41,554 bases of DNA from a virus (IMGVR_UViG_3300045988_117571:1-41554); one strand, 5' to 3'; shown: positions 100-31,223, numbered from the stretch's first letter. The notes: generated by a model not told the origin, from the sequence alone. Translations and numbers: made by a program.

Positions 100-1369
100 C
101 GACCTGGGCCTGACGGTGGGAGAGCGGGGCGTTGTGACCATCTGTGAGCCCCTGAGCTGGGGCCCTGTGGGTGAGGTCATGACCGTCGCCAACGGGGACA
201 ATATGATCCCCTTCACGGGCTACGACATCACCAATGAGAAAAACCGGTTCCTGCGGGAGATCTTCCGGGGGACCAACCGGACGAGCCCTCCCACCACGCT
301 GTACCTGTACCGGCCCACGGCGGCATCCAGCGCAAAGGCTACAGTGACCACCGGTGCGCTGACCGCCACCGCCAAGTATCCCGGTCTGCGGGGCAACGAC
401 ATCACGATCGTGGTCACGGAGGATGTGGACAGCGAGGCCGATGAGTTCTACGTCTCCACCGTGGTTGACGGTGAGGTCCAGGACCAGCAGCACGCCGCCG
501 TGGTGGGCGACCTGGTGGCGAACGACTGGGTGGACTGGAGCGGCACCGGGGCGCTGACAGCCACTGTGGGCGCTCCCCTGACGAGCGGCGCCGACGGCAC
601 CGTGGCGGCCTCCGCGTACTCCACCTATCTGGAGGCCATCGAGCCCTATAAGTTCGATGTGATCATCTATGACGGGACCGACAGCACCGTGCAGGACGCC
701 ATGGTGTCCTTCGTCAACCGCCTGGCCGATGAGAATGGCCAGTATACCCAGCTGGTGGCGGCCAACCTCACCGCACCGGACAGCCGCTTTGTGGTCAACG
801 TCATGAGCGGCGTGACCCTGGCGGACGGGACGGTGCTCACCCCGCAGCAGGTGACCTGGTGGGCCGGTGGCGCTACGGCGGGCGCGAAATACAACGAGAG
901 CCTGACCTACGCCAACTACCCCACGGCTGTGGCGGTGTCCCCGCTGCTGACCAATAACCAGATCATCTCCGCCCTCAACGCCGGGCAGTTCATCCTGGTG
1001 GCGGACTTCGACGAGGTACATATCGAGCAGGATATCGACAGCCTGACCACCTACACCACGGACATCGGCAAGGTGTACCGGAAAAACCGGGTGATCCGGC
1101 TGTGCAACACCATCGCCAACGACATCTACCAGCAGTTCAGCCAGAACTACATCGGCGTGGTCAACAACAACGAAGCCGGCCGGGCACGGTTCAAGGCGGC
1201 CATCGTGGGCTATCTGCTCCAGATCCAGGCGAATGAGGGCATCCAGAACTTCGACGCGGAGGATGTGGAGGTCCTGCCCGGGGAGGAGATCGACGCCATC
1301 GTGGTCAACCTGTCGATCTATGCCGTGGACGCGGTGGAAAAGATCTATATGACCATCGAGGTCTCTTAA
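29..1369 (+). CDS. Contractile tail sheath protein (PBSX XkdK-like)
   Basis: The 447-aa ORF sits directly upstream of tube and chaperone genes. The ATG at 29 follows the stop of the junction-spanning small ORF (TGAtcATG). The track start at 23 is a TTG. Length and order are typical of the sheath family. Confidence 0.85.
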   Translation: MAGGTWTDQNKVRPGVYIRFTTGRDLGLTVGERGVVTICEPLSWGPVGEVMTVANGDNMIPFTGYDITNEKNRFLREIFRGTNRTSPPTTLYLYRPTAASSAKATVTTGALTATAKYPGLRGNDITIVVTEDVDSEADEFYVSTVVDGEVQDQQHAAVVGDLVANDWVDWSGTGALTATVGAPLTSGADGTVAASAYSTYLEAIEPYKFDVIIYDGTDSTVQDAMVSFVNRLADENGQYTQLVAANLTAPDSRFVVNVMSGVTLADGTVLTPQQVTWWAGGATAGAKYNESLTYANYPTAVAVSPLLTNNQIISALNAGQFILVADFDEVHIEQDIDSLTTYTTDIGKVYRKNRVIRLCNTIANDIYQQFSQNYIGVVNNNEAGRARFKAAIVGYLLQIQANEGIQNFDAEDVEVLPGEEIDAIVVNLSIYAVDAVEKIYMTIEVS

Positions 1370-1383
1370 AGGAGGTGCGATAG

Positions 1384-1869
1384 ATGTCTTATTTGCTGGC
1401 GCGGGATACCGTCAATGGCGCGGAGGGCAAGATCTTCGTAACGAAGGATGGGCGAAACGTCGAAATAATCGGCATGCGGAACATCAAGCCGGGGGCGGAT
1501 ATCCAATCCAATGACATGCGGGTCATCGGCACCCGGAAGATCCAGGACAAACCCAACGGCGCGAAGCTGACCGCCACGGGAAACGTGTACTATGGGTCCA
1601 ACGCCTCCAATATGTGGCGGGACATGGTGCTGAAATATATCAAGACCGGTGTGATGGACGAGTTCGACGTGCAGATCACCAACCAAGACCCCACCACCAC
1701 CATCGGAAGCCAGATCATGGCCTATTACGGCTGTCACCTGACGGGGACCATCCCGCTGTCTGTTCTGGACAGCGAGGAGGCCATGCTGAACTATGACTTC
1801 AATTTCGTTTACACCGATGTGGCCATGCTTCAGGGCTTTACCGACCCCACCTCGGTGGGCAGCGACTAA
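1384..1869 (+). CDS. Tail tube protein (XkdM-like)
   Basis: 161 aa, with RBS AAAGGAGG 8 nt upstream. It lies between the sheath and chaperone genes. The N-terminal region (NGAEGKIFV..DGR) resembles the XkdM tube family. Confidence 0.8.
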   Translation: MSYLLARDTVNGAEGKIFVTKDGRNVEIIGMRNIKPGADIQSNDMRVIGTRKIQDKPNGAKLTATGNVYYGSNASNMWRDMVLKYIKTGVMDEFDVQITNQDPTTTIGSQIMAYYGCHLTGTIPLSVLDSEEAMLNYDFNFVYTDVAMLQGFTDPTSVGSD

Positions 1870-1884
1870 GGAGGATAAGAGAAC

Positions 1885-2295
1885 ATGAGCAGACTGAGCG
1901 CGTTTTTGCACCCCTCTACCACTCAGGTGGAGAGGGAGGTGATCGTCTCGGACCGCTTCCTGGATGAGGGCGGCAAGCCTGTCCCATTTAAGATCCGGGC
2001 CGTGACCCAGGCGGAGAACGAGGCCATCACAAAGCAGGCCACCCGGCGGGTCCGGGAGAACGGCCAGATGGTGGACCGGTTGGACAGCGTGGACTTCACC
2101 CGGCGGATGCTGGTGACCGCTGTTGTGGAGCCTGACTTTTCCAACACGGAGATGTGCCAGGCGTATGGGGTGCTGGACCCCCTGCTGGTCCCCGGCAGAA
2201 TGCTGCTGGCAGGGGAGAGCTCCAAGCTGATGCGGGAGATCATGGACCTGTCGGGGTTCAACGACGCCAACATCGAGGACACGGCAAAAAACTGA
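1885..2295 (+). CDS. Tail assembly chaperone, short form (XkdN-like, G-equivalent)
   Basis: 136 aa, immediately upstream of the tape measure gene, with RBS AAGGAGG. It ends in a slippery heptamer. Confidence 0.8.
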   Translation: MSRLSAFLHPSTTQVEREVIVSDRFLDEGGKPVPFKIRAVTQAENEAITKQATRRVRENGQMVDRLDSVDFTRRMLVTAVVEPDFSNTEMCQAYGVLDPLLVPGRMLLAGESSKLMREIMDLSGFNDANIEDTAKN

Positions 2296-2459
2296 TCAGT
2301 GGGGCCAGCCCTGACCCTGACACAATGGCGGCTTATTATTGCTTCGTGAATCTGGGCTGGCCCCCGTCCAAATACGCGGACCTGCCATACCGTGAGCGGG
2401 TCCTAATCACAGAGTTCATCCGAAAAGAGATCAAGTCCAGACCGCAGCCGAAGGGGTGA
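1885..2459 (+). CDS. Tail assembly chaperone, -1 frameshift-extended form (GT-equivalent)
   Basis: The -1 frame stays open from the slippery site to 2459. It encodes KKLISGASPDPDTMAAYYCFVNLGWPPSKYADLPYRERVLITEFIRKEIKSRPQPKG and ends 4 nt before the tape measure start. Confidence 0.7.
2286..2292 (+). promoter_or_regulatory. -1 programmed ribosomal frameshift slippery heptamer A_AAA_AAC
   Basis: Zero-frame codons are GCA AAA AAC TGA. The X_XXY_YYZ pattern sits directly before the stop codon, at the conserved chaperone/tape-measure position. Confidence 0.7.
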
Positions 2460-13876: not shown

Positions 13877-14191
13877 TCACTCAATAACCCCCATCAGGCG
13901 CAAAATCAGGTCCACCTGCCAGACATCAGAAACAGCCCCTACTACTGCTCCGGCGGTTATCCATTCGGATAACCGCCATTTCTGTATGTCTTCCGGGCTC
14001 TCCGAGGTGTCCCTCTTACACTCGAACGCCACCATACGCCCTTGTATACTTCCTATTATATCAGGTGTCCCCCGCTCAGAAAAGACGTTGCCGTGAATGT
14101 TGATCGCTTTGGCTCCTGGTATGGAGTTGAGGTAGTCCAACACAGGCCGGACTACCCCAGTATACTCCAACCGCTTGTCACGGTTTGGCAC
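13877..14191 (-). CDS. VRR-NUC domain nuclease
   Basis: 104 aa. PD-(D/E)xK signature GTPDIIG ... VAFECK. It is the last gene of the minus arm and overlaps the upstream gene by 14 nt. Confidence 0.7.
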   Translation of the reverse strand: MPNRDKRLEYTGVVRPVLDYLNSIPGAKAINIHGNVFSERGTPDIIGSIQGRMVAFECKRDTSESPEDIQKWRLSEWITAGAVVGAVSDVWQVDLILRLMGVIE

Positions 14192-14582
14192 GTCTGATAA
14201 GCCTCCCTACCTCGTCGCTAACAATTTTCATCTGCGCCTCTCTAGTGGGAATGTCCTGCATGTCGGGCTTTTTCTCCTCGGTCCACAGGGCCATGAGGAG
14301 GTTAGTGGCCGCCGCGGCCAAGTGATCCTCGTCTGTCCATCCATCCATATATTTGGCCATATGCCGCATCGCCGAATCAAGCATGGTATGCATGGGTATA
14401 CCTTTTTCCCAGTTGCGCTCAGGGTAGTGACCTGATGTTACAGAGTTTTCCATGTGCTTAGACACCCTGATCAACGCGCACCACGGGAGCAAGTCCATAC
14501 GACCCTTTCCTCCAGTGTCCCTGATGGCACCAGTCTCAAATTTCTCCACAACGTTACCTCCCCGTAGAACCAAATCCGGCAT
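14178..14582 (-). CDS. dATP/dGTP pyrophosphohydrolase N-domain-like protein (DUF5664 / MazZ-N-like)
   Basis: 134 aa. The pattern GKGRMDLLPW..L..V...ME......Y.ERNWEKG....M..SAMRHM..Y..G..DEDHLAAAATNLLMAL matches my memory of the DUF5664 (dGTP_diPhyd_N) family. It overlaps the dUTPase gene by 29 nt. Confidence 0.6.
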   Translation of the reverse strand: MPDLVLRGGNVVEKFETGAIRDTGGKGRMDLLPWCALIRVSKHMENSVTSGHYPERNWEKGIPMHTMLDSAMRHMAKYMDGWTDEDHLAAAATNLLMALWTEEKKPDMQDIPTREAQMKIVSDEVGRLIRRAKP

Positions 14583-14988
14583 CCCCGCGCTTGCCGGGCA
14601 CCGCCTTGATCTCGTCTACCTCAGACCATCGTACATCTTCGATAACGTGGAACAGAACCTGGGCCAGGCGCATACCTTGTTCCACGTGAAACATCTTATT
14701 CCCGAGATTGTGTACACACACGAATAACTCCCCGGTATACCCATTATCAATAATACCCTCATTAATTAGGAGACCGTGTTTTCTAAGACTACTGGATCGT
14801 CCGGTAATCCGAGCATACAGGAACGGGGGCATATCAATTCTAACACCTGTATGCACATCCACTGTCTCCCCAGGCGGAATATCACAAGGTTGTGACACGA
14901 ACAAGTCCCACCCGGCGTCCCCCTGGTGCTTCTTGAAGGGGCGCTTAGCGCCCTCTTCAAGTGTGTAACTAACGTACCTAGCCGCCAT
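14554..14988 (-). CDS. dut: Trimeric dUTPase-fold nucleotide pyrophosphatase
   Basis: About 144 aa. Motifs: AGWDL, GRSS, GIIDNGYTGEL, RGDAGFGSTGR. Its ATG overlaps the stop of the upstream AdSS-like gene (TGATG). Confidence 0.85.
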   Translation of the reverse strand: MAARYVSYTLEEGAKRPFKKHQGDAGWDLFVSQPCDIPPGETVDVHTGVRIDMPPFLYARITGRSSSLRKHGLLINEGIIDNGYTGELFVCVHNLGNKMFHVEQGMRLAQVLFHVIEDVRWSEVDEIKAVPGKRGDAGFGSTGR

Positions 14989-16037
14989 CACCGCACCTCC
15001 ACCATGGTATCAGGGCCAGTACCGATGTACTTAACCATACCAAGTACACCAACTTCTTTCATGAACTCAAACAGGATTCTGGAGTTCATAACCGCCTTGG
15101 GATCCTCACACCCATACAGGCTAGGGTCCACATAGTCAACAAACATCAGGGCCACTTCTGTGGGGGAGTTCAGCATGCACGACTGTTCAAACAGCTCGTG
15201 GTCCCATTCTGCGATTCTGCGGATTTTCTTGGTTACCGTAGTTCTTTCGGACACCTCTTTACCGATCCGTCTGGACAGCTCCTCCCAGGAGATTTCATTC
15301 TTCATGGGGCCGGAGTTGCCCGCAACTCGGATGGGGTAGGTGCGGCACACCATCAAAACGTTGGTAACACGGGAGGGAGCAATACCCACTTCAGAGATGA
15401 TGCCCGCTGCGTTGGTATCGATGCTGGTACAGTACGGCCAGTGACTGTGCAGCAGGGACAGCGCAGACCCCTGTGTACCCTCTATTAAGATGTTGGCTCC
15501 TTCGTCCTGGAAGCTTGCGATCAGCGCTGGGGTATTGCTGCGCATACACTCGCAGAGACCGTACTCCTCGGCAACATCCTTAAACTGACGGAATTTGCTG
15601 GGGTCTCTCTGCAGTCTGGCGATGCGGGCCGGTCCAACACCCTCGCCGGTGGAACCGATGCGGCGATGCATCTCGCCACTGGTCCCTCCCTCCTCTTCGT
15701 GGAACTTCTCGTCCAAAATACCTGCTTCGGGATCCACGATCAGACGACCGAGGAAATCAGGGTAATGTCTCATAATGTGTACCAGCTCTTTCATGAACTG
15801 CTTCATGTTGAGCAGAGCCCCACGCCCAATAATGACAGTAGCATTAGGGTTAATCCATCCGCACGGGATGGACTGCATCACGTGTTTCTCCCCATTCCAA
15901 TAAATGGTGTGACCGGCGTTGGGGGAGCCTACCCTCACATGGACCTGGTATTCGTTGGCCACGTGTGCCGCTACCGCGCCTTTACCCTCGGATCCGTACT
16001 GGCCACCAACCAGCACTGTCAGTTTTCCTCGTTCCAT
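14988..16037 (-). CDS. purZ: Adenylosuccinate synthetase homologue, short phage type (PurZ-like candidate)
   Basis: 349 aa. Motifs: GGQYGSEGKG P-loop, NAGHT, IGSTGEGVGPA, IEGTQG, YPIRVAGNSGP, TTVTKKIRR. It is much shorter than bacterial PurA. It is flanked by a pyrophosphatase, a dUTPase, a HAD phosphatase and PolA. Confidence 0.7.
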   Translation of the reverse strand: MERGKLTVLVGGQYGSEGKGAVAAHVANEYQVHVRVGSPNAGHTIYWNGEKHVMQSIPCGWINPNATVIIGRGALLNMKQFMKELVHIMRHYPDFLGRLIVDPEAGILDEKFHEEEGGTSGEMHRRIGSTGEGVGPARIARLQRDPSKFRQFKDVAEEYGLCECMRSNTPALIASFQDEGANILIEGTQGSALSLLHSHWPYCTSIDTNAAGIISEVGIAPSRVTNVLMVCRTYPIRVAGNSGPMKNEISWEELSRRIGKEVSERTTVTKKIRRIAEWDHELFEQSCMLNSPTEVALMFVDYVDPSLYGCEDPKAVMNSRILFEFMKEVGVLGMVKYIGTGPDTMVEVR

Positions 16038-16426
16038 TCCAAAATTCTCCTTACATTTTTAATGGTTATGTCCACAGCGGTCCCCGTGGAAAAAACGTCT
16101 TGCACCACCACAAAATTGGGATTGTGGTCATCAATGTAGACATCCGCGTACACCTTTCTTGTGCCGCTGGGGTATTTCGCCTTATACTTAGCAATATTGC
16201 TGGGCGCATTTTCGTTCACGGCGCAGAAGTGGATCCCCCGCACCTCACACCAATCAACCGCTGCCGTGAGTTCTTCTCCAACTCTGGAGGTCCATAGAAC
16301 GACCTCGTGTCCTTTATCAATCACTTCCCGAATGAAGGACACCATTTCGTCATGCTGGGGGCCGATTTCAGGAAATCGGTTCTCACATAAAATTCCGTCA
16401 AAATCCACTGCTATGATCACTGACAT
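16019..16426 (-). CDS. HAD-superfamily phosphatase (nucleotidase-like)
   Basis: 135 aa from the ATG at 16426, with GGAGG upstream. The track ORF extends to 16558, but that part has no RBS and is Arg-rich and implausible. Motifs: I AVDFDGIL, II WTSR, IV YIDDH. It overlaps the purZ-like start by 19 nt. Confidence 0.65.
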   Translation of the reverse strand: MSVIIAVDFDGILCENRFPEIGPQHDEMVSFIREVIDKGHEVVLWTSRVGEELTAAVDWCEVRGIHFCAVNENAPSNIAKYKAKYPSGTRKVYADVYIDDHNPNFVVVQDVFSTGTAVDITIKNVRRILEWNEEN

Positions 16427-16494
16427 ACCTTCTTTCTGGCCTCCCGTGGCCTCTTCCTTGCGCTTGAGGCCACGGGGGTACTCACATACCGACC

Positions 16495-18315
16495 TCACCC
16501 GTCTGAGCCAACGGAGCGCAACGGAGGGGGCACGACGATGTCTTCTCCTGGCTTCCACTTCTTGAATGTTCCCCAGGACCTACCGTACTCAACGTCCACA
16601 CCTACTGCCGGAACAAAGTCGAAGTCTTCCATGATAGTCTTGATGGCGGGTATGGCCACCTTCAGTTGGTCGTCCGGGACCTCAAACATCACGGAGTCGT
16701 GTACCTGCAGTAGCATATACCCTCCAATGTCCAGCATGGCCGGGAACAGTCTAGATATTGCCACTCTGACGATCTCAGCAACACCACCCTGAATTAAGTT
16801 GGACATCGCCTTGTGGGGGTCAGCCTCCGGAACGTTAAAATGCCGGGTTCTGCCGGTCCACATCTTGATGTACCCGTTTTGCTTGGCAAAATCCTCACAT
16901 TGATACATCAGCTTGCGGAATCCGGGGTACAGCTTGTGGTACCGTTCCAAGTAGTCCCGCGCCACTTCTTGCTCCACCCGCAAGTTTTCGGCTAGGTGCT
17001 TATATCCTATACCATAAATTACCGAGAAATTGATCCGCTTAGCCGCATTACGAGGAATCCCCAACAACTCAGCGGTTGCGGAGTGTAGGTCCGCGTCCTG
17101 CTCGATCAACCCCCGCATTGTAGCATCCTTGGTGTAGTGGGTCACCAGTCGCATTTCAGCTTGCTTGTAGTCTGCCTGGATCATCGTATATCCGGACCTG
17201 GCCTCAAACACATCCTTCACCTTGAACACCTCAGTGTGCTTTGCCACTGCCTGCAGATTCGGGTTACTACACGACAGACGTCCAGTGTACGTACCGATTA
17301 GGTTTAAGGAACAATGGAGAGCATTGTCAGAATCCATAGCCTCGATATACGGCGTGTAGTACCTGCTGTCCACCGACAACCACCCACGGGCCTCCTGCAC
17401 CAATTTAGCCCGTTCGGCTCCCTCCCCACCAGCATCAATCAACTCCTGCAGACGCTCTGCTGCCGAGGACTTTACTCCAAGGAACTCGCACACTTTCTTC
17501 GACGAATTTGGGTTGAGATCGAACCCAGCTTTGGTGTTCAGTCTCTCTTTAGCATCTTTAGAGTGCTGTACTGCTTCATTCCTATACTTGGAAATGGTGT
17601 CGGGGTTGATAAGCATCCCGCGCTGCTCCATCAGCATCACCACGTAACTGTAGTAGTTTACCTGTCTCCAGATATCATACAAACCGTGATATTGCAAAGC
17701 TGGCCTGACGAGTTCCAACAGCGCCCTGGTGAGCCTAACATCGTCACAAGCGTACGGTTCCACGTCTGCCGGATCCAACACATACATCATAGATTTTACG
17801 TTGTTTTCAGATTTCGGATTCCTACTGCATGGGAGCCCTAGGCGCTGGCACTCTTCGAATACCTTATCCTCAAGGATGGATTCTTGTAGGGATCCTTCCC
17901 CAATACCATATCGGTCACATATCTCTTTCAATTTGAACGATGGTTCATTCTCGTTAAGTAGATGTACTGCCAGCATGGCATCTTCAAAATTGGGGGCTGG
18001 GACAATTCCATCTGTAGACATCATATGTTCGTCGAAACTGTAGTTAAACCCGCCATACGTCCTATGCGGATCCGACAGGTACCCTCGGAAGAATTTCATA
18101 CACTCTATCGGCAAGTTGGTTCCCTGTGCATGCCGGAAAGGAAAATAGTAGGCTTCTTCCCCTCGATCCACAGCAATACCTATCACTTTGTCCTGCTTTC
18201 TCTTGGAGTTGCCGAAGATGCACAAACCAGTGGTTTCGGTGTCCACACATGGGTCTGTGCAGGACAGGAGCAGGGGTTTGACCTTCTCCAGCATCTCCGG
18301 TGTGTTGACGAGCAT
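16495..18315 (-). CDS. Family A DNA polymerase with 3'-5' exonuclease domain (DpoZ candidate)
   Basis: 606 aa. Exo motifs: DTETTGL, FNYSFDEHM, YACDDV. Pol motifs: A DYKQAEMRL, B RNAAKRINFSVIYG, C QVHDSVMFE. Confidence 0.9.
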   Translation of the reverse strand: MLVNTPEMLEKVKPLLLSCTDPCVDTETTGLCIFGNSKRKQDKVIGIAVDRGEEAYYFPFRHAQGTNLPIECMKFFRGYLSDPHRTYGGFNYSFDEHMMSTDGIVPAPNFEDAMLAVHLLNENEPSFKLKEICDRYGIGEGSLQESILEDKVFEECQRLGLPCSRNPKSENNVKSMMYVLDPADVEPYACDDVRLTRALLELVRPALQYHGLYDIWRQVNYYSYVVMLMEQRGMLINPDTISKYRNEAVQHSKDAKERLNTKAGFDLNPNSSKKVCEFLGVKSSAAERLQELIDAGGEGAERAKLVQEARGWLSVDSRYYTPYIEAMDSDNALHCSLNLIGTYTGRLSCSNPNLQAVAKHTEVFKVKDVFEARSGYTMIQADYKQAEMRLVTHYTKDATMRGLIEQDADLHSATAELLGIPRNAAKRINFSVIYGIGYKHLAENLRVEQEVARDYLERYHKLYPGFRKLMYQCEDFAKQNGYIKMWTGRTRHFNVPEADPHKAMSNLIQGGVAEIVRVAISRLFPAMLDIGGYMLLQVHDSVMFEVPDDQLKVAIPAIKTIMEDFDFVPAVGVDVEYGRSWGTFKKWKPGEDIVVPPPLRSVGSDG

Positions 18316-18800
18316 CAGCCCTCTCTGGCCTCAGCCAGCTCCTTGAGAGTCATCACACGGGAGATTTGGGAGCGGGCTTGGCCGTTGTACTCAGTCACCT
18401 CAATAAGGGCGCCGCAGTCTTTACCAACCACATCAGACCGTTTGAATTTAACTACCTGACCTTGCTGTCCCACACCAAGGGCCATCACGGTTTCCGCTAC
18501 CTTCCACATAGCAGCAGGGGTGATGGCCGTAAACACCTTGAACTCCCGACCAGTGTAATTACCCTCTACCACTGCGAACGTCCAGACGAACATCGGGTTG
18601 CCGCTCTTAGAAACGGACTGCTCCACATCGTTGCAACACACCTTATACAAGCCATCTGGAACCTTAAAGTTGTCCTGTACATTGGTGAGATCAATCTCAA
18701 AAGCATCCGGAGAAGAAACGGAACTGTTACCGGGCATGGGGGACTGAGTGGAGGGAGCGGGGACTCCACCGGGGGCGGGCATAAAAGGGTTGTTAGTCAT
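18315..18800 (-). CDS. DUF669-like protein (SSB-like partner of the Sak4 ATPase)
   Basis: 161 aa. It lies directly downstream of the Sak4-like ATPase, as is usual. The core pattern is P.G.Y......VE...SK.G.PM.V..F.V.EG.Y.GR. Confidence 0.55.
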   Translation of the reverse strand: MTNNPFMPAPGGVPAPSTQSPMPGNSSVSSPDAFEIDLTNVQDNFKVPDGLYKVCCNDVEQSVSKSGNPMFVWTFAVVEGNYTGREFKVFTAITPAAMWKVAETVMALGVGQQGQVVKFKRSDVVGKDCGALIEVTEYNGQARSQISRVMTLKELAEAREG

Positions 18801-18815
18801 TTTGTTTTCCTCCTG

Positions 18816-19595
18816 TTAATTGTTTAAATACTTCCCCATGATATCAACCATGTTGGGATCTCGAATGATTGGACCAATACGCTGAGCAAACTCACTGCCA
18901 CGGGTTTTAGCAGCAAAGTTGTTCATAGGCTGGGTGAGAAGGTATCTATGTGTCTCGCTGCGGTACCCAACTTCCTCGTTACCGGCCTGCTCGTCAGCGG
19001 TGTACAGATACCACACAAAGTCCATATACCCCATCACTGCCGTGCAAAGCTTCTCGGTCAGGTTGGGTTTGGACTCTTCTAGGACGTTGGTGCCCTTGCG
19101 CATTTTGTCTTTCTTGTGGGCGATGTAGATGACGTGCATCGGAAGGTCCCTAAACCCCCGCAGGATTCGGGCAAGGCGTTTGCCAGACACCCCGTAGTCC
19201 TCCAAGTAGACTTCATCAATGGAGTAATTCTTGTCCTTCTTGCGCCGATTGGCGAACTCCTTAGTGGTGATCCCCTCCAGTACCAGGGTTTGCAGCTCAG
19301 TAATGTTGTCAATCACCACGGTTTTGGTGTTTTCATACTTCGGATCGTGACTAACAATCCGGAAAAGTTCTTGCTCCAGATCATCTGCTGTGTGGATGTC
19401 CGTTGCATGAATGTCCCCACGGCTGGCCAACGTCATGATACCACCATCGATGTTGAAAACGTGGACATCAGCCATTTCTGGCACATCTTGGGCGGTACCG
19501 GCCAGGTAAGTCTTCCCACTTCCTGGGTCCCCATAAATTAAAACGTTGAGCTTACTCAGAAAGATGCTAGGTGTAATCAAATAACCGTCATTCAT
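18816..19595 (-). CDS. AAA/RecA-like ATPase (Sak4-type recombination protein)
   Basis: 259 aa. Walker A is YGDPGSGKT and Walker B-like is VVIDNITEL. It is paired with a DUF669 gene. Confidence 0.7.
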   Translation of the reverse strand: MNDGYLITPSIFLSKLNVLIYGDPGSGKTYLAGTAQDVPEMADVHVFNIDGGIMTLASRGDIHATDIHTADDLEQELFRIVSHDPKYENTKTVVIDNITELQTLVLEGITTKEFANRRKKDKNYSIDEVYLEDYGVSGKRLARILRGFRDLPMHVIYIAHKKDKMRKGTNVLEESKPNLTEKLCTAVMGYMDFVWYLYTADEQAGNEEVGYRSETHRYLLTQPMNNFAAKTRGSEFAQRIGPIIRDPNMVDIMGKYLNN

Positions 19596-19599
19596 TTTA

Positions 19600-19992
19600 T
19601 CACCTTCTTAGTATGTTTCCTTCCCAATCTACTACGCCCGTCCTAATTAGCTCAGGTATAGTCTTGTTGTTCCATCTACTGTGCAAAATGTGTAAGTGAC
19701 ACCTTTCGCACAGACACACAAGATTAGAAAATTCGTTATTGGTATTATCTTGGTCTTTATGGTGGATATGCAGTTCTACGCCATCATCACGGGTGGCTCC
19801 ACAATAGAAACATTCCCACACGCCACCTCCATCAGTATATGATCTCTTGTGAGGTAGCCCACGGTCTTGCATTCTGCGGTTGTTGCGTAGTCTCTGCTCC
19901 TCACTCAATTCGGATACCCTGTATTTGTGCTGATTGCGCCTTTTTGATTCTCTCTTGCATATCTTGGCTTTTTCAGGGTCTTTATACGGCAT
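19600..19992 (-). CDS. HNH endonuclease
   Basis: 130 aa. Motif: CFYCG...ELHIHHKD.D..NN...NLV.LC..CH..IH. Confidence 0.8.
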   Translation of the reverse strand: MPYKDPEKAKICKRESKRRNQHKYRVSELSEEQRLRNNRRMQDRGLPHKRSYTDGGGVWECFYCGATRDDGVELHIHHKDQDNTNNEFSNLVCLCERCHLHILHSRWNNKTIPELIRTGVVDWEGNILRR

Positions 19993-20001
19993 ACTTCCTC
20001 C

Positions 20002-20571
20002 TCATGTCTTATCGATGTAGGTTGCGGCTTCATCTGCCACATGAAGCAGCCACGCCAGCCGGTTGTGCTCGAACACTTCCCCGGGCTTTCCGTAGTCCTG
20101 CCGGTCCCACGGCCCCATATGGCAATTGATAGCGGCGGCCTCAAACGGCTCCAGGCTCATAAAATGCTGGACCAGGTATACAGACTTGGACCCGTGTCCA
20201 CCGAACGGAAAACTCTCCTCGAATTTGTAGAAGGGCACCTTCTCCCATTGGCCGGTTTGGTCGTTCTTCACATTACGGGTGGACACTTTGTAGCACCCCA
20301 CCTTACACAGGTCGTGAAACAGGGCCACAATGGCCTCGGACTCCCGGCTGCACCTAGCTCCTTCCATGTCATAGAATTCGTTAAGGTCTTTCAATCGCCG
20401 GTATACGTTCAGACTGTGCATCGCTAATCCACCCTCGAACGCGCCATGGTACCGGCTGGACGCCGGAGCGGTGAAGAAATCAGTGGCCTGAATCCATTCG
20501 AGTAGCTTGTCAATCCCATCGCGGTGAATCCCCCGCTTGGCTATGGTCAAAAATTCATCCTTGATGTTCAT
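20002..20571 (-). CDS. HD-domain phosphohydrolase (DatZ-like dNTP hydrolase candidate)
   Basis: 189 aa. Metal-binding pattern: RYHG...H..., LFHDLCK, HGSKS, HVADEAA. Confidence 0.6.
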   Translation of the reverse strand: MNIKDEFLTIAKRGIHRDGIDKLLEWIQATDFFTAPASSRYHGAFEGGLAMHSLNVYRRLKDLNEFYDMEGARCSRESEAIVALFHDLCKVGCYKVSTRNVKNDQTGQWEKVPFYKFEESFPFGGHGSKSVYLVQHFMSLEPFEAAAINCHMGPWDRQDYGKPGEVFEHNRLAWLLHVADEAATYIDKT

Positions 20572-20591
20572 TTCGTCACCTCCTATATATA

Positions 20592-21716
20592 TTATACCAT
20601 GTTAGTGGGGGTGTTGTCAACACCCTTATTGTCATTCCTACCGCGAACGGTGTACTCACGTAGTCGGATCTCCTTTGCGTCGTAGTCTCTCAGCTCCGCC
20701 TGGCATAAGGATTGATATTGGCACATCTTGCAATTCCAGGGGTACATAAACCGCTTGTTTCCTCCCTTGTGGGACCTCTTCACGGCCCAGGATGCCGGTA
20801 CCACTACTTCGTCCCAGATTCTTTTCACGGTGGAGTCGTTGCGGTACTCGTAGGTTGCACGGAACCACTCAATATCAGCCAGCTTAGGCTCCATCTCTTC
20901 CCGGTATGGTTCCGGGTCCACCCCTTGGGCGGCACAAAATCGTGCGTAATGATTCCAGGTAGTCTTAATCTTGGTCCGGCTGATAGTCCCGTTCTTGTTC
21001 ACTGCCGGGTCTGCGGCCGGAGTGTTGCAGTGCTGCCAGGTCATGGTACCTGTGATCTTGATACCCATTTTGCTGCAAGCATGAGTATACACCGCGTTCT
21101 GGACGTTGTACGCTTCCTCGGTGTCGTCCGACAGGGATTTTCGGAATTTGTAATCAGTACACCATGTAAACCCCGTTTCCTTATCCCTGAGAATCGCATC
21201 AATATACCCATGTAGCCCCCCGGAGCCGGGACAAGGCACCAGAAAATGGAGCTCCAGCGCCGGTACGGGTTTGCCGCCCTTCTGCATCGTCACCACTTCA
21301 TACTTCCACGGCTCAAATTCATTAAACGCCTGAGTAAACACCGACACCGCGTCAGTCAAAATCTGCTCCTGGTCCGGGATCTCCTCTACCAAGAACTCGT
21401 TGTTCCTCATATACGTATCCCACTCGGCCACCATGGCGTCCACCCCGTTAGCCCTCCAGGACCCGTACAGCCCGCACTCATAGGAAGTATCTAGTCCATC
21501 TTGCTGGTCCTTCCACGCTTCCTGCATGGCGGTTTGCATTCCCTTGTGGCAGAGCTTACCTACCGTCAGGAACGGTCGTTCTACACGGGGCTTGAGGTTC
21601 TCAATGTAGTTGTACTCCCACTTCTTGGGGCAGCTCATATGCGTCATGAGCTGGGATACTGACACCATCCCCTCAGGGGTCGTCCCTTCCGGGAACAGGC
21701 ACTTGGTATTTTTCAT
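20592..21716 (-). CDS. PD-(D/E)XK / Cas4-RecB-like exonuclease with C-terminal Cys cluster
   Basis: 374 aa from the ATG at 21716 (GGAGG 8 nt upstream); the longer track ORF crosses the intergenic inverted repeat. Nuclease-core pattern: GYIDAIL..., TDYKF. C-terminal Cys cluster: CKMCQYQSLC. Confidence 0.65.
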   Translation of the reverse strand: MKNTKCLFPEGTTPEGMVSVSQLMTHMSCPKKWEYNYIENLKPRVERPFLTVGKLCHKGMQTAMQEAWKDQQDGLDTSYECGLYGSWRANGVDAMVAEWDTYMRNNEFLVEEIPDQEQILTDAVSVFTQAFNEFEPWKYEVVTMQKGGKPVPALELHFLVPCPGSGGLHGYIDAILRDKETGFTWCTDYKFRKSLSDDTEEAYNVQNAVYTHACSKMGIKITGTMTWQHCNTPAADPAVNKNGTISRTKIKTTWNHYARFCAAQGVDPEPYREEMEPKLADIEWFRATYEYRNDSTVKRIWDEVVVPASWAVKRSHKGGNKRFMYPWNCKMCQYQSLCQAELRDYDAKEIRLREYTVRGRNDNKGVDNTPTNMV

Positions 21717-21746
21717 GTTGTAACCTCCTGTTGTAGCCGCTCGGGT

Positions 21747-21792
21747 GTTGTATTGCATTGCACTCCCAAGGGAGATGCAATACAATACAACA
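21747..21792. repeat. Imperfect inverted repeat IR-1 (arms GTTGTATTGCATTGCACTCCC / GGGAGATGCAATACAATACAAC)
   Basis: Read by eye. It lies in the 141-nt gap between the primase-helicase stop and the nuclease start. The 19-nt core atgcaatacaatacaacaa (21775..21793) is identical to 31140..31158. Further TACAA/TTGTA half-sites lie at 21812..21848. Confidence 0.85.
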
Positions 21793-21857
21793 ACCTCGCC
21801 AACGGCCCGCACAATACAAGTTGTAGTTGTTGTATACCGTGTTGTAATGGCGCAACA

Positions 21858-23672
21858 TCACTCTACCCCTTTTCTCTTGTACCTCCCGTCGGGCATCTTC
21901 TCCACCATTCCAGCAGCCTCTAGTTGTCTGATCTGCCGGGAAATAGTGGAGCGGGTCTTGCCTGCCTTGCTGCACAGGTCCCCCTGGGACATTGGACCTT
22001 CCTGCATGAGGTCCAGCAAATTGGCCTGGGCGGGTTGTCGGTTCTCGGTGTTGGATAGGGCTTGATACTGGTTGGATACTACCTGATACTGCATGGGGTA
22101 CTTGGTGCTGATGTTGAAGGTCAACGAGATGGGGGGCTGGTTGCCCATCACCTTGGAATGGCGGCGCACTACTATTTCATTCGAGGCTAGGCGCGGATTG
22201 CGTCGCACCTGCCAACCGGCCTCCAGGAATGCGTTAAGAAATTGGGACCCCCAGGAATCCTCACGGGCCGTACTGTCCGGGTCCAGATTCTTCTTGGAGT
22301 GGTGGGCCAGCACAAACGAGCATCCATACTTGTCGCGCCATGTTTTCAGTACCATCATCTGGTTAGCTAGATCGGCCATGTAGTTGTCCACGGCTGCCGT
22401 GGTGGAGTATAGCGGGTCAATCATAATTACCTTGGGTCGGATCGTAGCGATCTGTTGCTCCAGCTCCTCCAGGACCTTTTTGTTGTCGAATCGTAGCATA
22501 CGGGACGGATGCACGTAAATCGGCAGGTCTGGCATACAAGGAACTTGCCATATATCCCCGTCAATGTTAGTCGTGGCCCCCAATTTCTGTTCCACAATTA
22601 GAGCTAAACGATCAGTTAGCCCGGTGTGGCTATCTTCCTGCTGGATGATTATAGTGGGACCTTTGTCGTTAACAGGATACCTTCCCAAGAATGGGACCCC
22701 GGAAGATATCGACACGGCTAGGTCTAGCAGTATCCAAGTCTTGTAGCTCTCAGGTGGAGAGATCAGGAAGGTAATACTTTTGTCCGGCAACCAGTCCTCC
22801 ACCAACCAGGAGACCCCCTCACCGCCGTATCCTTTGACATAGTCGGCCATACGCATGACATCAAATGTGGAGTGCTTTTGCTGCTGTTCCTTCTCTACGG
22901 CGGTCCGGTCGTCCTCAAACTGGACAGACGTAAACTGAGTTTCCTCAATTGCGTGGTTGCGCTCTATAGACTTGATGGTTGTCCGTATTTCCCGAACCGG
23001 CAACGGGGGGTCGTTCCGCTCGTTCCATTCCATCAATAGGGTCTCCACTATATCGGAGTTGATCCCCTTCTTGAAGAAATACCCGGCCAGTCGCGCACAG
23101 GCATCGTTCCTGCCGCCTTCGGAGACACCTCGGAGCGTTTCTGTTATCCACCCGTCATTTTGTACCCGGGGTTGTGCCTGAAGCTCAAGAAGAGCCACTG
23201 GGAACGCCCCGAGAGGCCCTCTCTTAACCCATTCGTACCTGTTGCCGTTCGGGTGAATTGTGGGGGGCAGTACGATGAACCCCCCGTCTGCTCTCAGGTC
23301 TGCCCCGTCGAAAATTCTCACTCTGTTGGACACGTGAGGAACAGAGGTTGGGTACTGATAGAACAGGTGGTACCCACCGGACCCTGTACGGGAGTACATT
23401 TGGGTCGGATACCTTCTTAGCAGGTCCTCGATGGAGTATGGGCAGCTAGCCTCCACATCCAGCACCACCATGTTGGACACTCTTCCGGTCACAACACCGA
23501 CTCCCACACCTGACAAATTGACGAACCACGACGTTACCATCTCTTTGGTAGCTTTCGTCTTGGTATATTGCAGCCAGTTGGTCATGAACGGACGTTTCTC
23601 CTCGGGCTTTACAGGCAACACACTCCAGCCGCTGTCCACATACTCAGCCGCTAAATCAATCGTCGTTGCCAT
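21858..23672 (-). CDS. Primase-polymerase / helicase fusion with C-terminal winged-helix domain
   Basis: 604 aa. The N-terminal bifunctional Prim-Pol pattern is GWSVLPV...KRP...W, GVGVVTG...VVLDVE. A PriCT-like motif GGRNDACARLAGYF follows. The central RepA/AAA_25-like P-loop is SPPESYKT. The C-terminal wHTH is GDLCSKAGKTRSTISRQIRQLEAAGMV. Confidence 0.8.
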   Translation of the reverse strand: MATTIDLAAEYVDSGWSVLPVKPEEKRPFMTNWLQYTKTKATKEMVTSWFVNLSGVGVGVVTGRVSNMVVLDVEASCPYSIEDLLRRYPTQMYSRTGSGGYHLFYQYPTSVPHVSNRVRIFDGADLRADGGFIVLPPTIHPNGNRYEWVKRGPLGAFPVALLELQAQPRVQNDGWITETLRGVSEGGRNDACARLAGYFFKKGINSDIVETLLMEWNERNDPPLPVREIRTTIKSIERNHAIEETQFTSVQFEDDRTAVEKEQQQKHSTFDVMRMADYVKGYGGEGVSWLVEDWLPDKSITFLISPPESYKTWILLDLAVSISSGVPFLGRYPVNDKGPTIIIQQEDSHTGLTDRLALIVEQKLGATTNIDGDIWQVPCMPDLPIYVHPSRMLRFDNKKVLEELEQQIATIRPKVIMIDPLYSTTAAVDNYMADLANQMMVLKTWRDKYGCSFVLAHHSKKNLDPDSTAREDSWGSQFLNAFLEAGWQVRRNPRLASNEIVVRRHSKVMGNQPPISLTFNISTKYPMQYQVVSNQYQALSNTENRQPAQANLLDLMQEGPMSQGDLCSKAGKTRSTISRQIRQLEAAGMVEKMPDGRYKRKGVE

Positions 23673-23898
23673 CTTCTTCCTCCTTGTGTGCTACCATGAA
23701 CAGCTCATGGGTGTTGACCTTGTACAGGGCCGCGTACTTGAGGATCGCCTCTTCAGACAGGGTCCGACCACCGCTCTCATGGCGGGAAATAGCGGGGACA
23801 CTAAAACCGGTCAGGATGCTAACCTCTTGAAGGGTCAGCCGGGAGCGGTCCCGAAGCTCCTTGAGCCGGTTCTTGGGTGCGGAATTATCCTTCATCAT
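23656..23898 (-). CDS. XRE-family helix-turn-helix transcriptional regulator (Cro-like)
   Basis: 80 aa. HTH: LTLQEVSILTGFSVPAISRHESGGR. RBS AAAGGAGG. It is the first gene after a consensus promoter and overlaps the primase-helicase start. Confidence 0.8.
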   Translation of the reverse strand: MMKDNSAPKNRLKELRDRSRLTLQEVSILTGFSVPAISRHESGGRTLSEEAILKYAALYKVNTHELFMVAHKEEEDGNDD

Positions 23899-28971: not shown

Positions 28972-29781
28972 TTAGAGCCCCAGGACCTTGGCCACGACCT
29001 TCTTACCCAGCTCGGTAAAAGCGATGTATTTGGCCTTCTTACCGTTGTCGTAGCTCCCAACGCTCACCACCAGGAGGTGTTTCTCGCGGAGGGTGCTGAC
29101 CATTGCCCCAATGGTCATAGGGCCCATTTTGTCGGAAAGCTCGTCGCACAGGATGTCGATCCAGAGGGCGCTGTCCAGCCCCCCAGTCCAGAACTGAGTT
29201 CTGGGGAGTTCCTTGATGAAGGCCACCTGCTTGGCGGTGAGGATCACACCCATGCCGTCCTCGACAAACTCTATGCCGCCAACCCGGACCTTCTTCTTGC
29301 GGGGGGCCTTGGTGCGTTGTTCCGCGTCGGCTCTGGAGTCGGCGTCACACCCGAAAATACTCATGGCCACCTTGCGGGTAATAGGGCCAAACTGTTCGAC
29401 GTAGGTGTTGTAGGTGTTGATGTCCCAGCACTCCACGGTGCTGTCCCCACCCTTGGAGTAGTGTTTCTTGGCCAACTCAATGAGCTCCTCGTAGGTGAGG
29501 CCCTTCTTGGTCTTCTCGGTCTTCATCATCTCTTTTTGGATGGCGGCAACCTCGGCATCCTCTTCCTCCTGGACCAAGCGCTCAATGGCCTCGTGCATCT
29601 TGGCGTCCATCCGGTCATCATGCTCCTGCATGGCTTTGGCGAACTCGTTCTTGCTGATGCGAGTGCTCTGTCGGTGCATCTTGCCGCCCTCCACAGGGTA
29701 AACGACGGTCTTGGTGCAGTAGCCGGTCTCGGGGTTCATGACGTACTCGATGTTGTCGATGGTGAACTTGTTGGTGTTCAT
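28972..29781 (-). CDS. Hypothetical early protein, first gene after a consensus promoter; possible C-terminal winged helix
   Basis: 269 aa with RBS TAGGAGG. The middle contains a basic patch (KAPRKKKVR). The C-terminus is MarR-like (MTIGAMVSTLREKHLLVV...YIAFTELGKKV). Confidence 0.55.
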   Translation of the reverse strand: MNTNKFTIDNIEYVMNPETGYCTKTVVYPVEGGKMHRQSTRISKNEFAKAMQEHDDRMDAKMHEAIERLVQEEEDAEVAAIQKEMMKTEKTKKGLTYEELIELAKKHYSKGGDSTVECWDINTYNTYVEQFGPITRKVAMSIFGCDADSRADAEQRTKAPRKKKVRVGGIEFVEDGMGVILTAKQVAFIKELPRTQFWTGGLDSALWIDILCDELSDKMGPMTIGAMVSTLREKHLLVVSVGSYDNGKKAKYIAFTELGKKVVAKVLGL

Positions 29782-30930: not shown

Positions 30931-30960
30931 ATTATAACATGACAACCCGGCGTTTGTCAA
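30931..30960 (-). promoter_or_regulatory. Consensus promoter (minus strand) for the methyltransferase / leftward arm
   Basis: Minus strand reads TTGACA-18 nt-TATAAT with an extended -10 (catgtTATAAT). The spacer contains TGACAA-N8-TTGTCA. Confidence 0.7.
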
Positions 30961-31025
30961 GTACTCTTGCGTTGCAACACGCATTCGTGTTGTAATAATA
31001 CAACAACTGGTACAACTGACAAATC

Positions 31026-31063
31026 ATTCAAAAACGAGAGGCCCCGTCGTACGGGCACTCTCG
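31026..31063 (-). terminator. Candidate Rho-independent terminator, oriented for the minus strand
   Basis: Stem CGAGAG..CCCG / CGGG..CTCTCG (31035..31063) with a 5-nt loop. On the minus strand it is followed by TTTTTGAATGA. No T-run follows on the plus strand. Confidence 0.4.
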
Positions 31064-31111
31064 GGTTCGTGTGGTAATACAATATTGGTTGCAACCACGT
31101 TGGGTTGTGTT

Positions 31112-31156
31112 GTTGTATTGTATTGCAATTCTTTTTAGAATGCAATACAATACAAC
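31112..31156. repeat. Near-perfect inverted repeat IR-2 (arms GTTGTATTGTATTGCAATTCT / AGAATGCAATACAATACAAC, loop TTTT)
   Basis: Read by eye. It has a one-base bulge. It shares the 19-nt core atgcaatacaatacaacaa with IR-1. It lies about 40 nt upstream of the late promoter -35. Confidence 0.9.
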
Positions 31157-31194
31157 AATGCAACGTCGATATTACAACAAATACAATAACTATA

Positions 31195-31223
31195 TTGACA
31201 GAAGCCGCCGAGTGTGGTATAAT
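31195..31223 (+). promoter_or_regulatory. Consensus promoter (plus strand) for the terminase/structural arm
   Basis: TTGACA (31195..31200), a 17-nt spacer, then TATAAT (31218..31223), preceded by TGg (extended -10). Confidence 0.75.

Follow-up and report, generated by a model that had tools for sequence, protein, structure and literature searches.

SPP1 gp38 binds two sites, oriL, which lies inside its own gene, and oriR, which lies between gp7 (MuF) and gp11 (scaffold), and it has been proposed that gp38-bound oriR stalls forks and triggers the switch to concatemer synthesis (PMC6316719, PMC3485210). In pRN1 the origin is a stem-loop of ~100 nt located 3' of the gene for a prim-pol/helicase/winged-helix protein, conserved in structure and not in sequence (PMC4234260, PMC2777425), and its authors proposed the same layout for phages (PMC4234260). 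Here we describe a repeat-rich palindrome that follows the primase-helicase gene in a virus record from IMG/VR that is complete and 41,554 bp long (IMGVR_UViG_3300045988_117571:1-41554), the whole of which is referred to below as the window. Comparison with related genomes leads us to favor, with moderate confidence, the view that this element serves the PrimPol-helicase as a docking site of origin type, with a gene-adjacent and accessory role for the 21.7-kb copy. The features of the gap, and the genes on either side of it, are as follows.

Positions 21717-21857, no strand assigned: locus A, a 141-nt non-coding gap with the palindrome and extra half-sites (gene calls, repeat and half-site scans).
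Positions 21743-21795, no strand assigned: palindrome A (inverted-repeat search, RNA and DNA folding).
Positions 21814-21846, no strand assigned: half-sites on the primase-helicase side, namely ATACAA/GTTGTA (21814-21825) and GTTGTA at 21829 and 21841 (half-site scan).
Positions 21717-21735, no strand assigned: two GTTGTA half-sites around the Shine-Dalgarno sequence of the nuclease gene, abutting its start codon; minus strand TACAACAGGAGGTTACAACATG (half-site scan).
Positions 21858-23672, minus strand: primase-helicase of 604 amino acids with PrimPol, PriCT_1, AAA_25 (RepA-like) helicase and C-terminal winged helix, the candidate initiator (domain search).
Positions 20592-21716, minus strand: PD-(D/E)XK nuclease, directly downstream of the element (domain search).

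The clustered repeat palindrome in this gap is genuine. Gene coordinates agree with the 141 nt given in a preliminary description of the sequence, and the imperfect inverted repeat reported there is present, with arms that we set at 21743-21762 and 21776-21795 (20 nt each, 90% complementary, inner pair CTCCC/GGGAG). The palindrome is laid out as GTTGTA-TTGCA-TTGCA, CTCCC-AA-GGGAG, (A)TGCAA-TACAA-TACAAC, with a single bulged base and, on the minus strand, one U.G pair, and when single-stranded it folds into a 25-bp stem. For the whole gap, folding gives a minimum free energy (MFE) of -55.8 kcal/mol as RNA (z = -4.9) and of -28.6 kcal/mol as DNA (z = -3.9). Seven GTTGYA hexamers (Y, pyrimidine) fall within the 141 nt where 0.14 would be expected (Poisson P = 2e-10). 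The extra TACAA/TTGTA half-sites noticed earlier come to five GTTGTA sites beyond the palindrome (21717, 21730, 21820, 21829, and 21841), every one of them TACAAC on the coding (minus) strand, and TACAAGTTGTA is found at 21814-21824. Scanning the genome placed exact copies of the 19-mer ATGCAATACAATACAACAA at 21775 and 31140 only (chance expectation none), as the preliminary description had supposed, with near copies at 31110(-) (one mismatch) and 21745(-) (three mismatches), each the opposite arm of its palindrome; the 8-mer TTGTATTG has no occurrence elsewhere in the genome. Neither a consensus promoter nor a T-run terminator had been seen in the gap, and this was borne out: a sigma-70 scan of its coding (minus) strand found no sigma-70-like promoter, and no T-run follows the stem of palindrome A on either strand, leaving it without the U-tract that an intrinsic terminator combines with a G+C-rich stem. 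The best promoter candidate by eye, ATGCAA-N17-TACAAC, was rejected because its start would fall within the Shine-Dalgarno sequence. An Rfam search returned nothing above the gathering score, the sub-threshold matches being to microRNA precursors only, as is usual for long hairpins.

The second palindrome of the window lies in the divergent control region at 31.1 kb, which has these features.

Positions 31105-31160, no strand assigned: palindrome B, in the divergent control region, TTGTTGTATTGTATTGCA(A)TTCT-TTTT-AGAATGCAATACAATACAACAA (repeat search).
Positions 30961-31194, no strand assigned: locus B, a TTGYA cluster (11 hexamers) between back-to-back consensus promoters (half-site and promoter scans).
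Positions 31195-31223, plus strand: perfect promoter TTGACA-N17-TGgTATAAT facing terS/TerL (sigma-70 scan).
Positions 30931-30960, minus strand: perfect extended -10 promoter of the leftward early operon (sigma-70 scan).

Enrichment is again strong: the 429 nt of the control region contain 11 GTTGYA hexamers where 0.43 would be expected (P = 1.5e-12). Palindrome B sits between the two outward-pointing consensus promoters, and no identified promoter reads across it. Also inside the control region is a G+C-rich hairpin at 31036-31068 that is followed by GTTTTT and is terminator-like on the minus strand only. No minus-strand gene lies upstream of it, similar small hairpins occupy the same place in relatives, and a short leftward RNA is possible.

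A near-identity DNA search of cultured phages gave no match, and the closest cultured phages, compared by protein, reach just 22-31% identity. Fourteen relatives were found via the primase-helicase (56-82% identity, 41-69% GC), with the whole replication/2-aminoadenine (Z) module in common, and the control regions of relatives carry TTGYA clusters and a long palindrome. When whole records were searched, every complete relative (four in all) proved to have two clusters of the palindrome, and a 74%-complete fragment (G002) had a single cluster and one isolated match; copies number two or three in each of the six complete or near-complete genomes checked, and the window has two (21.7 and 31.1 kb). 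A pattern scan of IMG/VR with GTTGYATTGYA-N5-25-TRCAATRCAAC (R, purine) returned 47 stretches, ~39 of them in the phage family of the window and eight apparently unrelated; the latter (L062, L072, L078, L090, L092, L096, L100, and L101) have no match to window proteins and were set aside. Mapped against window proteins and scaffold proteins, the copies occupy three contexts, and one contig holds all three. In context 1 the copy lies in the divergent control region that separates the terminase side from the early genes. In context 2 it lies between the Phage_Mu_F and Phage_scaffold genes, and a consensus promoter occupies part of the ~110-190 nt that separate it from the scaffold gene downstream (G001, G002, G004, and G005). 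In context 3 it precedes the nuclease gene and follows either the primase-helicase gene or small genes inserted behind that gene (L060, L065, L069, L094, L097, and the window). A copy adjacent to the primase-helicase gene is present in at least seven relatives (L060, L065, L069, L094, L097, L107, and L109). Context-3 copies share orthologous flanks, for example CACCGAGCGGCA-TRCAAC-AGGAGG, which indicates that the window copy was inherited rather than recently copied from 31.1 kb. The exact 19-nt identity of the two window loci, which the preliminary description had taken for a link between them, is simply the arm that the whole family conserves. In L107 and L109, where the primase-helicase is 92 and 88% identical, the 141-nt gap is kept and CTCCC/GGGAG has become TTCCC/GGGAA, a compensatory change.

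The primase-helicase/nuclease junction is also an insertion hot spot (L060, L065, L069, L094, and L107-L110), where the inserts vary by relative and include DNA methylases, Lar-like proteins, zinc-ribbon-like small proteins, or none. Where a palindrome is present at this junction it is always last, directly before the next Shine-Dalgarno sequence. One of these relatives (L110) encodes at 880-2418 (-) a MuF-like minor head protein with a match to the Pfam ADP-ribosyltransferase exoenzyme family (PF03496), and this match fits the toxin-fused gp7-like proteins named in the SPP1 genome paper.

Arms and center of the palindrome are conserved in different ways. The arms, (G)TTGYA-TTGYA-TTGCA, are nearly invariant over the 41-69% GC range, and they enclose ~50 distinct centers, which differ between genomes and between copies in one genome and stay self-complementary (paired fraction 0.62 vs. 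0.39 in shuffled centers). The flanks outside the arms covary, so that the stem reaches ~35 bp, and double changes are seen in 11 of the 31 predicted pairs among the six context-3 sequences. In L094 the arms have retained TTGYA and lost pairing (TTGCA opposite TACAA), which favors a sequence reading over mere stem formation. Overall, the comparison points to a protein that reads the arms and to a center that acts as structure. The one-base bulge is on the same side relative to the downstream gene across copies. A rolling-circle origin hairpin of the geminivirus/pT181 type was considered and rejected, as the loops vary (AA, TT, TTTT, TAAG, and others) with no conserved nick sequence; none of the genes scanned has an HUH Rep domain.

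Three proteins of the window could bind the repeats, the primase-helicase through its C-terminal domain and two others.

Positions 21876-22034, minus strand: ArsR/MarR-type C-terminal winged helix of the primase-helicase, residues 547-599 (domain search, model, Foldseek).
Positions 23656-23898, minus strand: XRE-family helix-turn-helix (HTH) protein, overlapping the primase-helicase start, an alternative candidate binder (domain search).
Positions 28972-29781, minus strand: early protein of 269 amino acids (aa), PadR/MarR-like winged helix at its C-terminus, another alternative binder (predicted structure).

The recognition helix of the primase-helicase domain, RSTISRQIRQLE, and its wing MPDG are invariant in 15 homologs (53-75% identity); in the consensus, (R/K)ST(I/V)SRQ(I/L)(R/K)QLE and MPDG stay constant while helices 1-2 vary. 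The XRE protein has an ISRHE that is invariant in close relatives. The 269-aa protein has no Pfam match, and its model (predicted local distance difference test 81) shows an N-terminal beta domain, a helix of ~50 residues, and the C-terminal winged helix, to which conservation is confined (GAMxSTLxEK); some relatives have two paralogs. The predicted structures of this protein and of the primase-helicase C-terminus are both generic winged helices, and modeling thereby added a rival binder without deciding between them.

Distant lineages were sampled with a view to separating these candidates. Distant homologs of the primase-helicase (30-51% identity) are found nearly all in phages with PurZ and PolA, and they keep inverted short iterons around a C-run/G-run hairpin. 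In sampled distant homologs the iterons of the control or upstream region are as follows.

L128: GTTGCA x16.
L112: TGTGTA x10.
L126 and L133: GTGCGTGCAAC/TGCACA.
L131: GTGCA.
L149: CGTGCA x12.
L157: TGCACA.
L156: GCTACA.

Other distant homologs have the array directly 3' of the primase-helicase gene, each with a G-run/C-run hairpin.

L167, 11800-12070: GTTCG x16.
L169, 6934-7300: GAAAGC x14.
L175, 11676-12000: GTCTCA x14.
L179, 11679-11990: GTCCAC x10.
L177, 5774-5950: GTGCAC x6.

No XRE-like gene occurs within 10 kb in any of the last five, and L112 has no homolog of the 269-aa protein, which leaves the primase-helicase as the sole candidate common to all instances. At least seven iteron types accompany differing C-terminal domains across lineages, and XRE, where present, co-varies too. 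The tie between primase-helicase and design suggested by these genomes is an association, and no proof.

From the observed anatomy, conservation, covariation, and gene association we infer both the identity of the binding protein and a start of replication at the element. The C-terminal winged helix would read the GTTGYA/TTGYA units, which are arranged as three tandem pentamers per palindrome arm, inverted, with single units in direct orientation on both flanks. These units would concentrate protomers, and RepA-like helicase rings could then assemble on either arm. With a self-complementary center and extended flanks, the opened strands may fold back as a hairpin or cruciform, keeping the site open for the PrimPol domain to prime. 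Opening by hairpin formation would suit a Z-substituted genome, in which A/T-rich DNA is not easily melted. The 21.7-kb copy could be a second origin; alternatively, initiator bound there might stall forks, as proposed for SPP1 oriR, or modulate read-through into the nuclease, DatZ, DpoZ, and PurZ genes.

Some observations favor a replication site that acts in cis. No identified promoter reads across the control-region copy, and the scaffold copy of G004 lies between a terminator and a promoter, which implies that the function shared by all copies is exerted on DNA. In addition, the control regions of G001 (complete) and G002 (the 74%-complete fragment) have zero TTGYA sites and carry instead CTACACA direct repeats and, in promoter spacers, TTGACAA/TTGTCAA inverted repeats, with palindromes located outside the control region (two in G001, one in G002). 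The palindrome is therefore no obligatory part of the early/late promoter switch. Its distance to the nearest promoter also ranges from about -90 to -345, and an element that is flexible in position and dispensable for the switch fits a cis replication site better than a classical operator. In one of its two readings the preliminary description had the neighboring primase-helicase bind the repeats as origin sites through its winged helix; after the comparative work this is the best-supported one, with the amendment that the 21.7-kb copy is accessory and not obligatory. Its support comes from the conservation of the element over 41-69% GC, from a recognition helix and wing that do not vary in the same genomes, from distant lineages in which other iterons directly follow the same gene and XRE is absent, and from the match of one recurrent position with SPP1 oriR.

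Several observations pull the other way. The right arm is lost in L108, leaving a truncated copy, and in L110 the copy is missing at that position, from which we conclude that the 21.7-kb copy is dispensable; in most close relatives the copies are elsewhere and the primase-helicase gene is followed by no gap, the next gene abutting its stop in nearly all of the fourteen. GC skew had been suggested as a check on origin activity; neither 21.7 kb nor the scaffold-context copies show a shift. The shifts that do occur are confined to strand-switch points, 31 kb included, where transcription and gene orientation confound them, and as the skew tracks gene orientation it is uninformative as an origin test. 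An AT-rich unwinding tract is not found beside the palindromes: within 200 nt of locus A no 40-nt segment falls below a GC of 0.35, and in high-GC relatives the minimum is 0.38-0.45, the G/C-rich hairpin center occupying the place of such a tract. The XRE and 269-aa proteins are likewise conserved, with invariant helices, in every close relative, and since the recognition helices of all three candidates are invariant there, helix conservation does not discriminate and nothing in the close family separates the three. Iteron type follows no clean rule with recognition-helix residues either, STISR occurring with GTTGYA, TGTGTA, and GTGCAA; over the distant lineages covariation of residues and motif is suggestive for whole domains. 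An equivalent of the P4 alpha origin-binding domain (PDB 1KA8) was looked for and rejected: the model of the primase-helicase C-terminus is a generic winged helix of the ArsR/SmtB type, the top 50 Foldseek matches are generic ArsR/SmtB/MarR winged helices, and a phmmer search against PDB sequences found only the ORF904 prim-pol and ArsR/MarR proteins and no P4 alpha domain. Folding of the two strands is unbiased in context 1; the sense strand has a modest advantage in context 2 (14/22, mean -2.5 kcal/mol, p = 0.011, in related sequences) and folds better in all six elements of context 3 (mean -5.1 kcal/mol, G.U pairs 15 vs. 5). The six context-3 sequences are related, which makes this bias weak evidence, and the pattern hints that a specific single strand, RNA or displaced DNA, may also matter. 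Finally, half-sites adjoin ribosome-binding sites, and in L009 they stand just after a promoter, which fits a regulator; an autoregulating initiator would also explain both placements.

It is possible, and on balance rather unlikely, that the TTGYA arrays are instead operators of the XRE protein or of the 269-aa PadR/MarR-like regulator, which would coordinate the late promoters (terS and scaffold) with transcription from the primase-helicase gene into the nuclease and Z-cluster genes, as a roadblock or autoregulator. The primase-helicase itself could act as such an operator-binding regulator besides its origin role. Two contexts out of three have a perfect consensus promoter, facing late genes, 35-250 nt downstream of the palindrome, half-sites overlap a weak promoter (TTGTCA-16-TATTAT, 31022-30995), and L009 has three TGCAAC units after the promoter of its XRE/primase-helicase operon; the invariant helices of both regulators in all close relatives also agree with this. 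Only the nuclease and methylase genes have half-sites on either side of their Shine-Dalgarno sequences, and to that extent the second reading of the preliminary description, operators for a regulator at a gene boundary, finds some support, with sites that reach the ribosome-binding sites of two genes. It is weakened by the divergent control regions of G001 and G002, which work without TTGYA and have better candidate motifs. The variable palindrome-promoter distance and the absence of a promoter from the 21.7-kb gap are also difficult to accommodate, an operator has no need of a variable self-complementary center, and the design persists beside the primase-helicase gene in lineages that lack XRE or lack the 269-aa protein. 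Among the promoters themselves, many have an inverted repeat TTGACAA...TTGTCA between -35 and -10 (23945-23916 and 30960-30931 in the window; 27808 in G005; 1011 and 2108 in G001), and CTACACA/TGTGTAG direct repeats stand beside promoters in G001, G002, and G003. The two motifs are distinct from TTGYA, resemble operators, and are better candidates than TTGYA for XRE- or PadR-like regulators.

We regard it as improbable that the transcribed copies work as an RNA hairpin in a polycistronic early message, be it for RNase III-type processing, as a 3' stabilizer of the primase-helicase message, or as a pause site or terminator lacking a U-tract, and would in this way set the level or translation of the nuclease gene ~20 nt downstream. 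The 25-bp stem, its extension to ~35 bp with covarying flanks, the strong RNA MFE, the better folding of the sense strand (6/6 context-3 and 14/22 scaffold-context elements), the constant side of the one-base bulge, and a fixed spacing to the Shine-Dalgarno sequence would all suit such a hairpin. However, no identified promoter reads across the control-region copy, the G004 copy lies behind a terminator, and arm sequence is kept over 41-69% GC, in L094 at the cost of pairing. RNA structure also leaves the dispersed single half-sites unexplained, there is no U-tract and no Rfam family above threshold, and the strand bias comes from six related sequences, which makes it weak.

A conserved boundary or mobile palindrome (resembling a miniature inverted-repeat transposable element) serving recombination and module exchange, or a terminase (pac/cos) site, is very improbable: each of the three contexts is a module boundary and a hot spot of gene insertion, variable small genes and methylases lie between the primase-helicase gene and the element, and copy number and position vary among genomes, but the orthologous CACCGAGCGGCA-TACAAC-AGGAGG flanks indicate vertical descent rather than transposition, neither target-site duplications nor a transposase gene was found, and a second internal packaging site would be harmful. 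The packaging-site version was rejected, since the motif is conserved in relatives with no detectable terS and a TerL of only ~30% identity, whose structural genes are likewise not conserved with the window. Origin, operator, RNA-hairpin, and boundary roles need not exclude each other.

The wider gene content of the window bears on the proposed opening by hairpin. Minus-strand genes run from ~13.9 to 30.9 kb, and the following lie downstream of the nuclease gene.

Positions 20002-20571, minus strand: HD (DatZ-like) hydrolase (domain search).
Positions 16495-18315, minus strand: family-A polymerase (domain search).
Positions 14988-16037, minus strand: PurZ-like adenylosuccinate synthetase (domain search).
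Positions 14178-14582, minus strand: MazZ-like N-domain protein (domain search).

A dUTPase-fold protein is also encoded within 13877-21716 (-), and with PurZ, the MazZ-like and DatZ-like proteins, and the family-A polymerase it makes up what is, judged by homology, the gene set of a 2-aminoadenine genome. The window has five perfect TTGACA-N17/18-TGnTATAAT promoters, all 12/12 sigma-70 matches with a TGn extended -10, four of which are on the minus strand (30960-30931, 29862-29833, 23945-23916, and 20620-20591). Relatives have extended -10 promoters of the same style, and one may speculate that this style could offset the harder melting of Z:T-rich -10 regions.

A doubtful but more general proposal is that Z-genome phages as a group initiate at inverted, lineage-specific iterons flanking a G-run/C-run hairpin and read by the (winged) HTH of a PrimPol/RepA-like helicase. 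As part of this proposal, the hairpin would replace the AT-rich element because Z:T pairs remove the melting advantage of A/T, and the two to three copies would be an origin plus fork-stalling or auxiliary sites. Of the four main PurZ/PrimPol/DpoZ papers retrieved, three do not contain the phrase "origin of replication." Were the origin interpretation correct, the element would be the first candidate replication origin for aminoadenine (Z-genome) phages, whose nucleotide metabolism and polymerases are well studied. It would also offer ~50 bp of defined DNA as a target for the PrimPol-helicase C-terminal domain, with the lineage-specific iterons as a natural series for specificity studies, and would allow origin opening to be tested where A/T-rich DNA has no melting advantage. 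If one of the rival explanations is right, the element is an ordinary operator or mRNA hairpin and its interest is local only. As a practical use, module boundaries can be located by the motif in a large family of uncultured phages, probably of gut and digester.

Set beside the known systems, the element resembles SPP1 in having two distant loci with shared repeat units, one of them in or beside the initiator gene, and the position of oriR corresponds to the scaffold-context copy of relatives, between MuF and scaffold genes. SPP1 differs in its direct repeats and AT-rich unwinding element and in keeping origin-binding protein, loader, and DnaB-type helicase separate, whereas here the units are tandem pentamers in a palindrome able to form a hairpin, a marked AT-rich tract is missing, and the PrimPol-helicase and the candidate binder are fused in one protein. 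The pRN1 protein ORF904 has prim-pol, helicase, and C-terminal winged helix in the identical order, with a small repressor gene upstream in the operon (orf56 in pRN1, XRE here). Its helicase is of superfamily 3 (SF3), however, there are no iterons, and specific binding was never shown for pRN1 (PMC4234260, PMC2777425). The present element has, in contrast, sequence-conserved repeat arms and several copies per genome.

P4 alpha also unites primase, helicase, and a C-terminal winged-helix origin-binding domain in one polypeptide, and P4 has two loci (ori and crr) with the same short iterons in both orientations. Alpha combines a DnaG/Toprim primase with an SF3 helicase, whereas the window protein has a PrimPol of the archaeo-eukaryotic primase (AEP) type and a RepA-like AAA_25 helicase, and the P4 iterons are octamers without a hairpin core. 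The oriV of RSF1010 has RepC iterons, ssiA and ssiB hairpins in an inverted repeat at which RepB' primes, and the RepA helicase; it shares with our system a RepA (AAA_25) helicase, an AEP-fold primase, and hairpins that each unwound strand can form for priming, and differs in its three separate proteins and 20-bp direct iterons. The polyomavirus core origin, where large T antigen binds GAGGC pentamers, has its palindrome in a divergent early/late control region. There, too, inverted pentamer pairs nucleate two helicase rings, the origin lies between divergent promoters, and the initiator regulates transcription; with unrelated proteins and hosts, this is a design analogy only. Measured against these systems, the proposed site is of a known kind, the initiator-plus-iteron origin, and what sets it apart is its tandem pentamer arms and a covarying G/C-rich center that replaces the AT-rich element. 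It is further distinguished by two to three copies at fixed module boundaries and by the tie to Z-genome phages.

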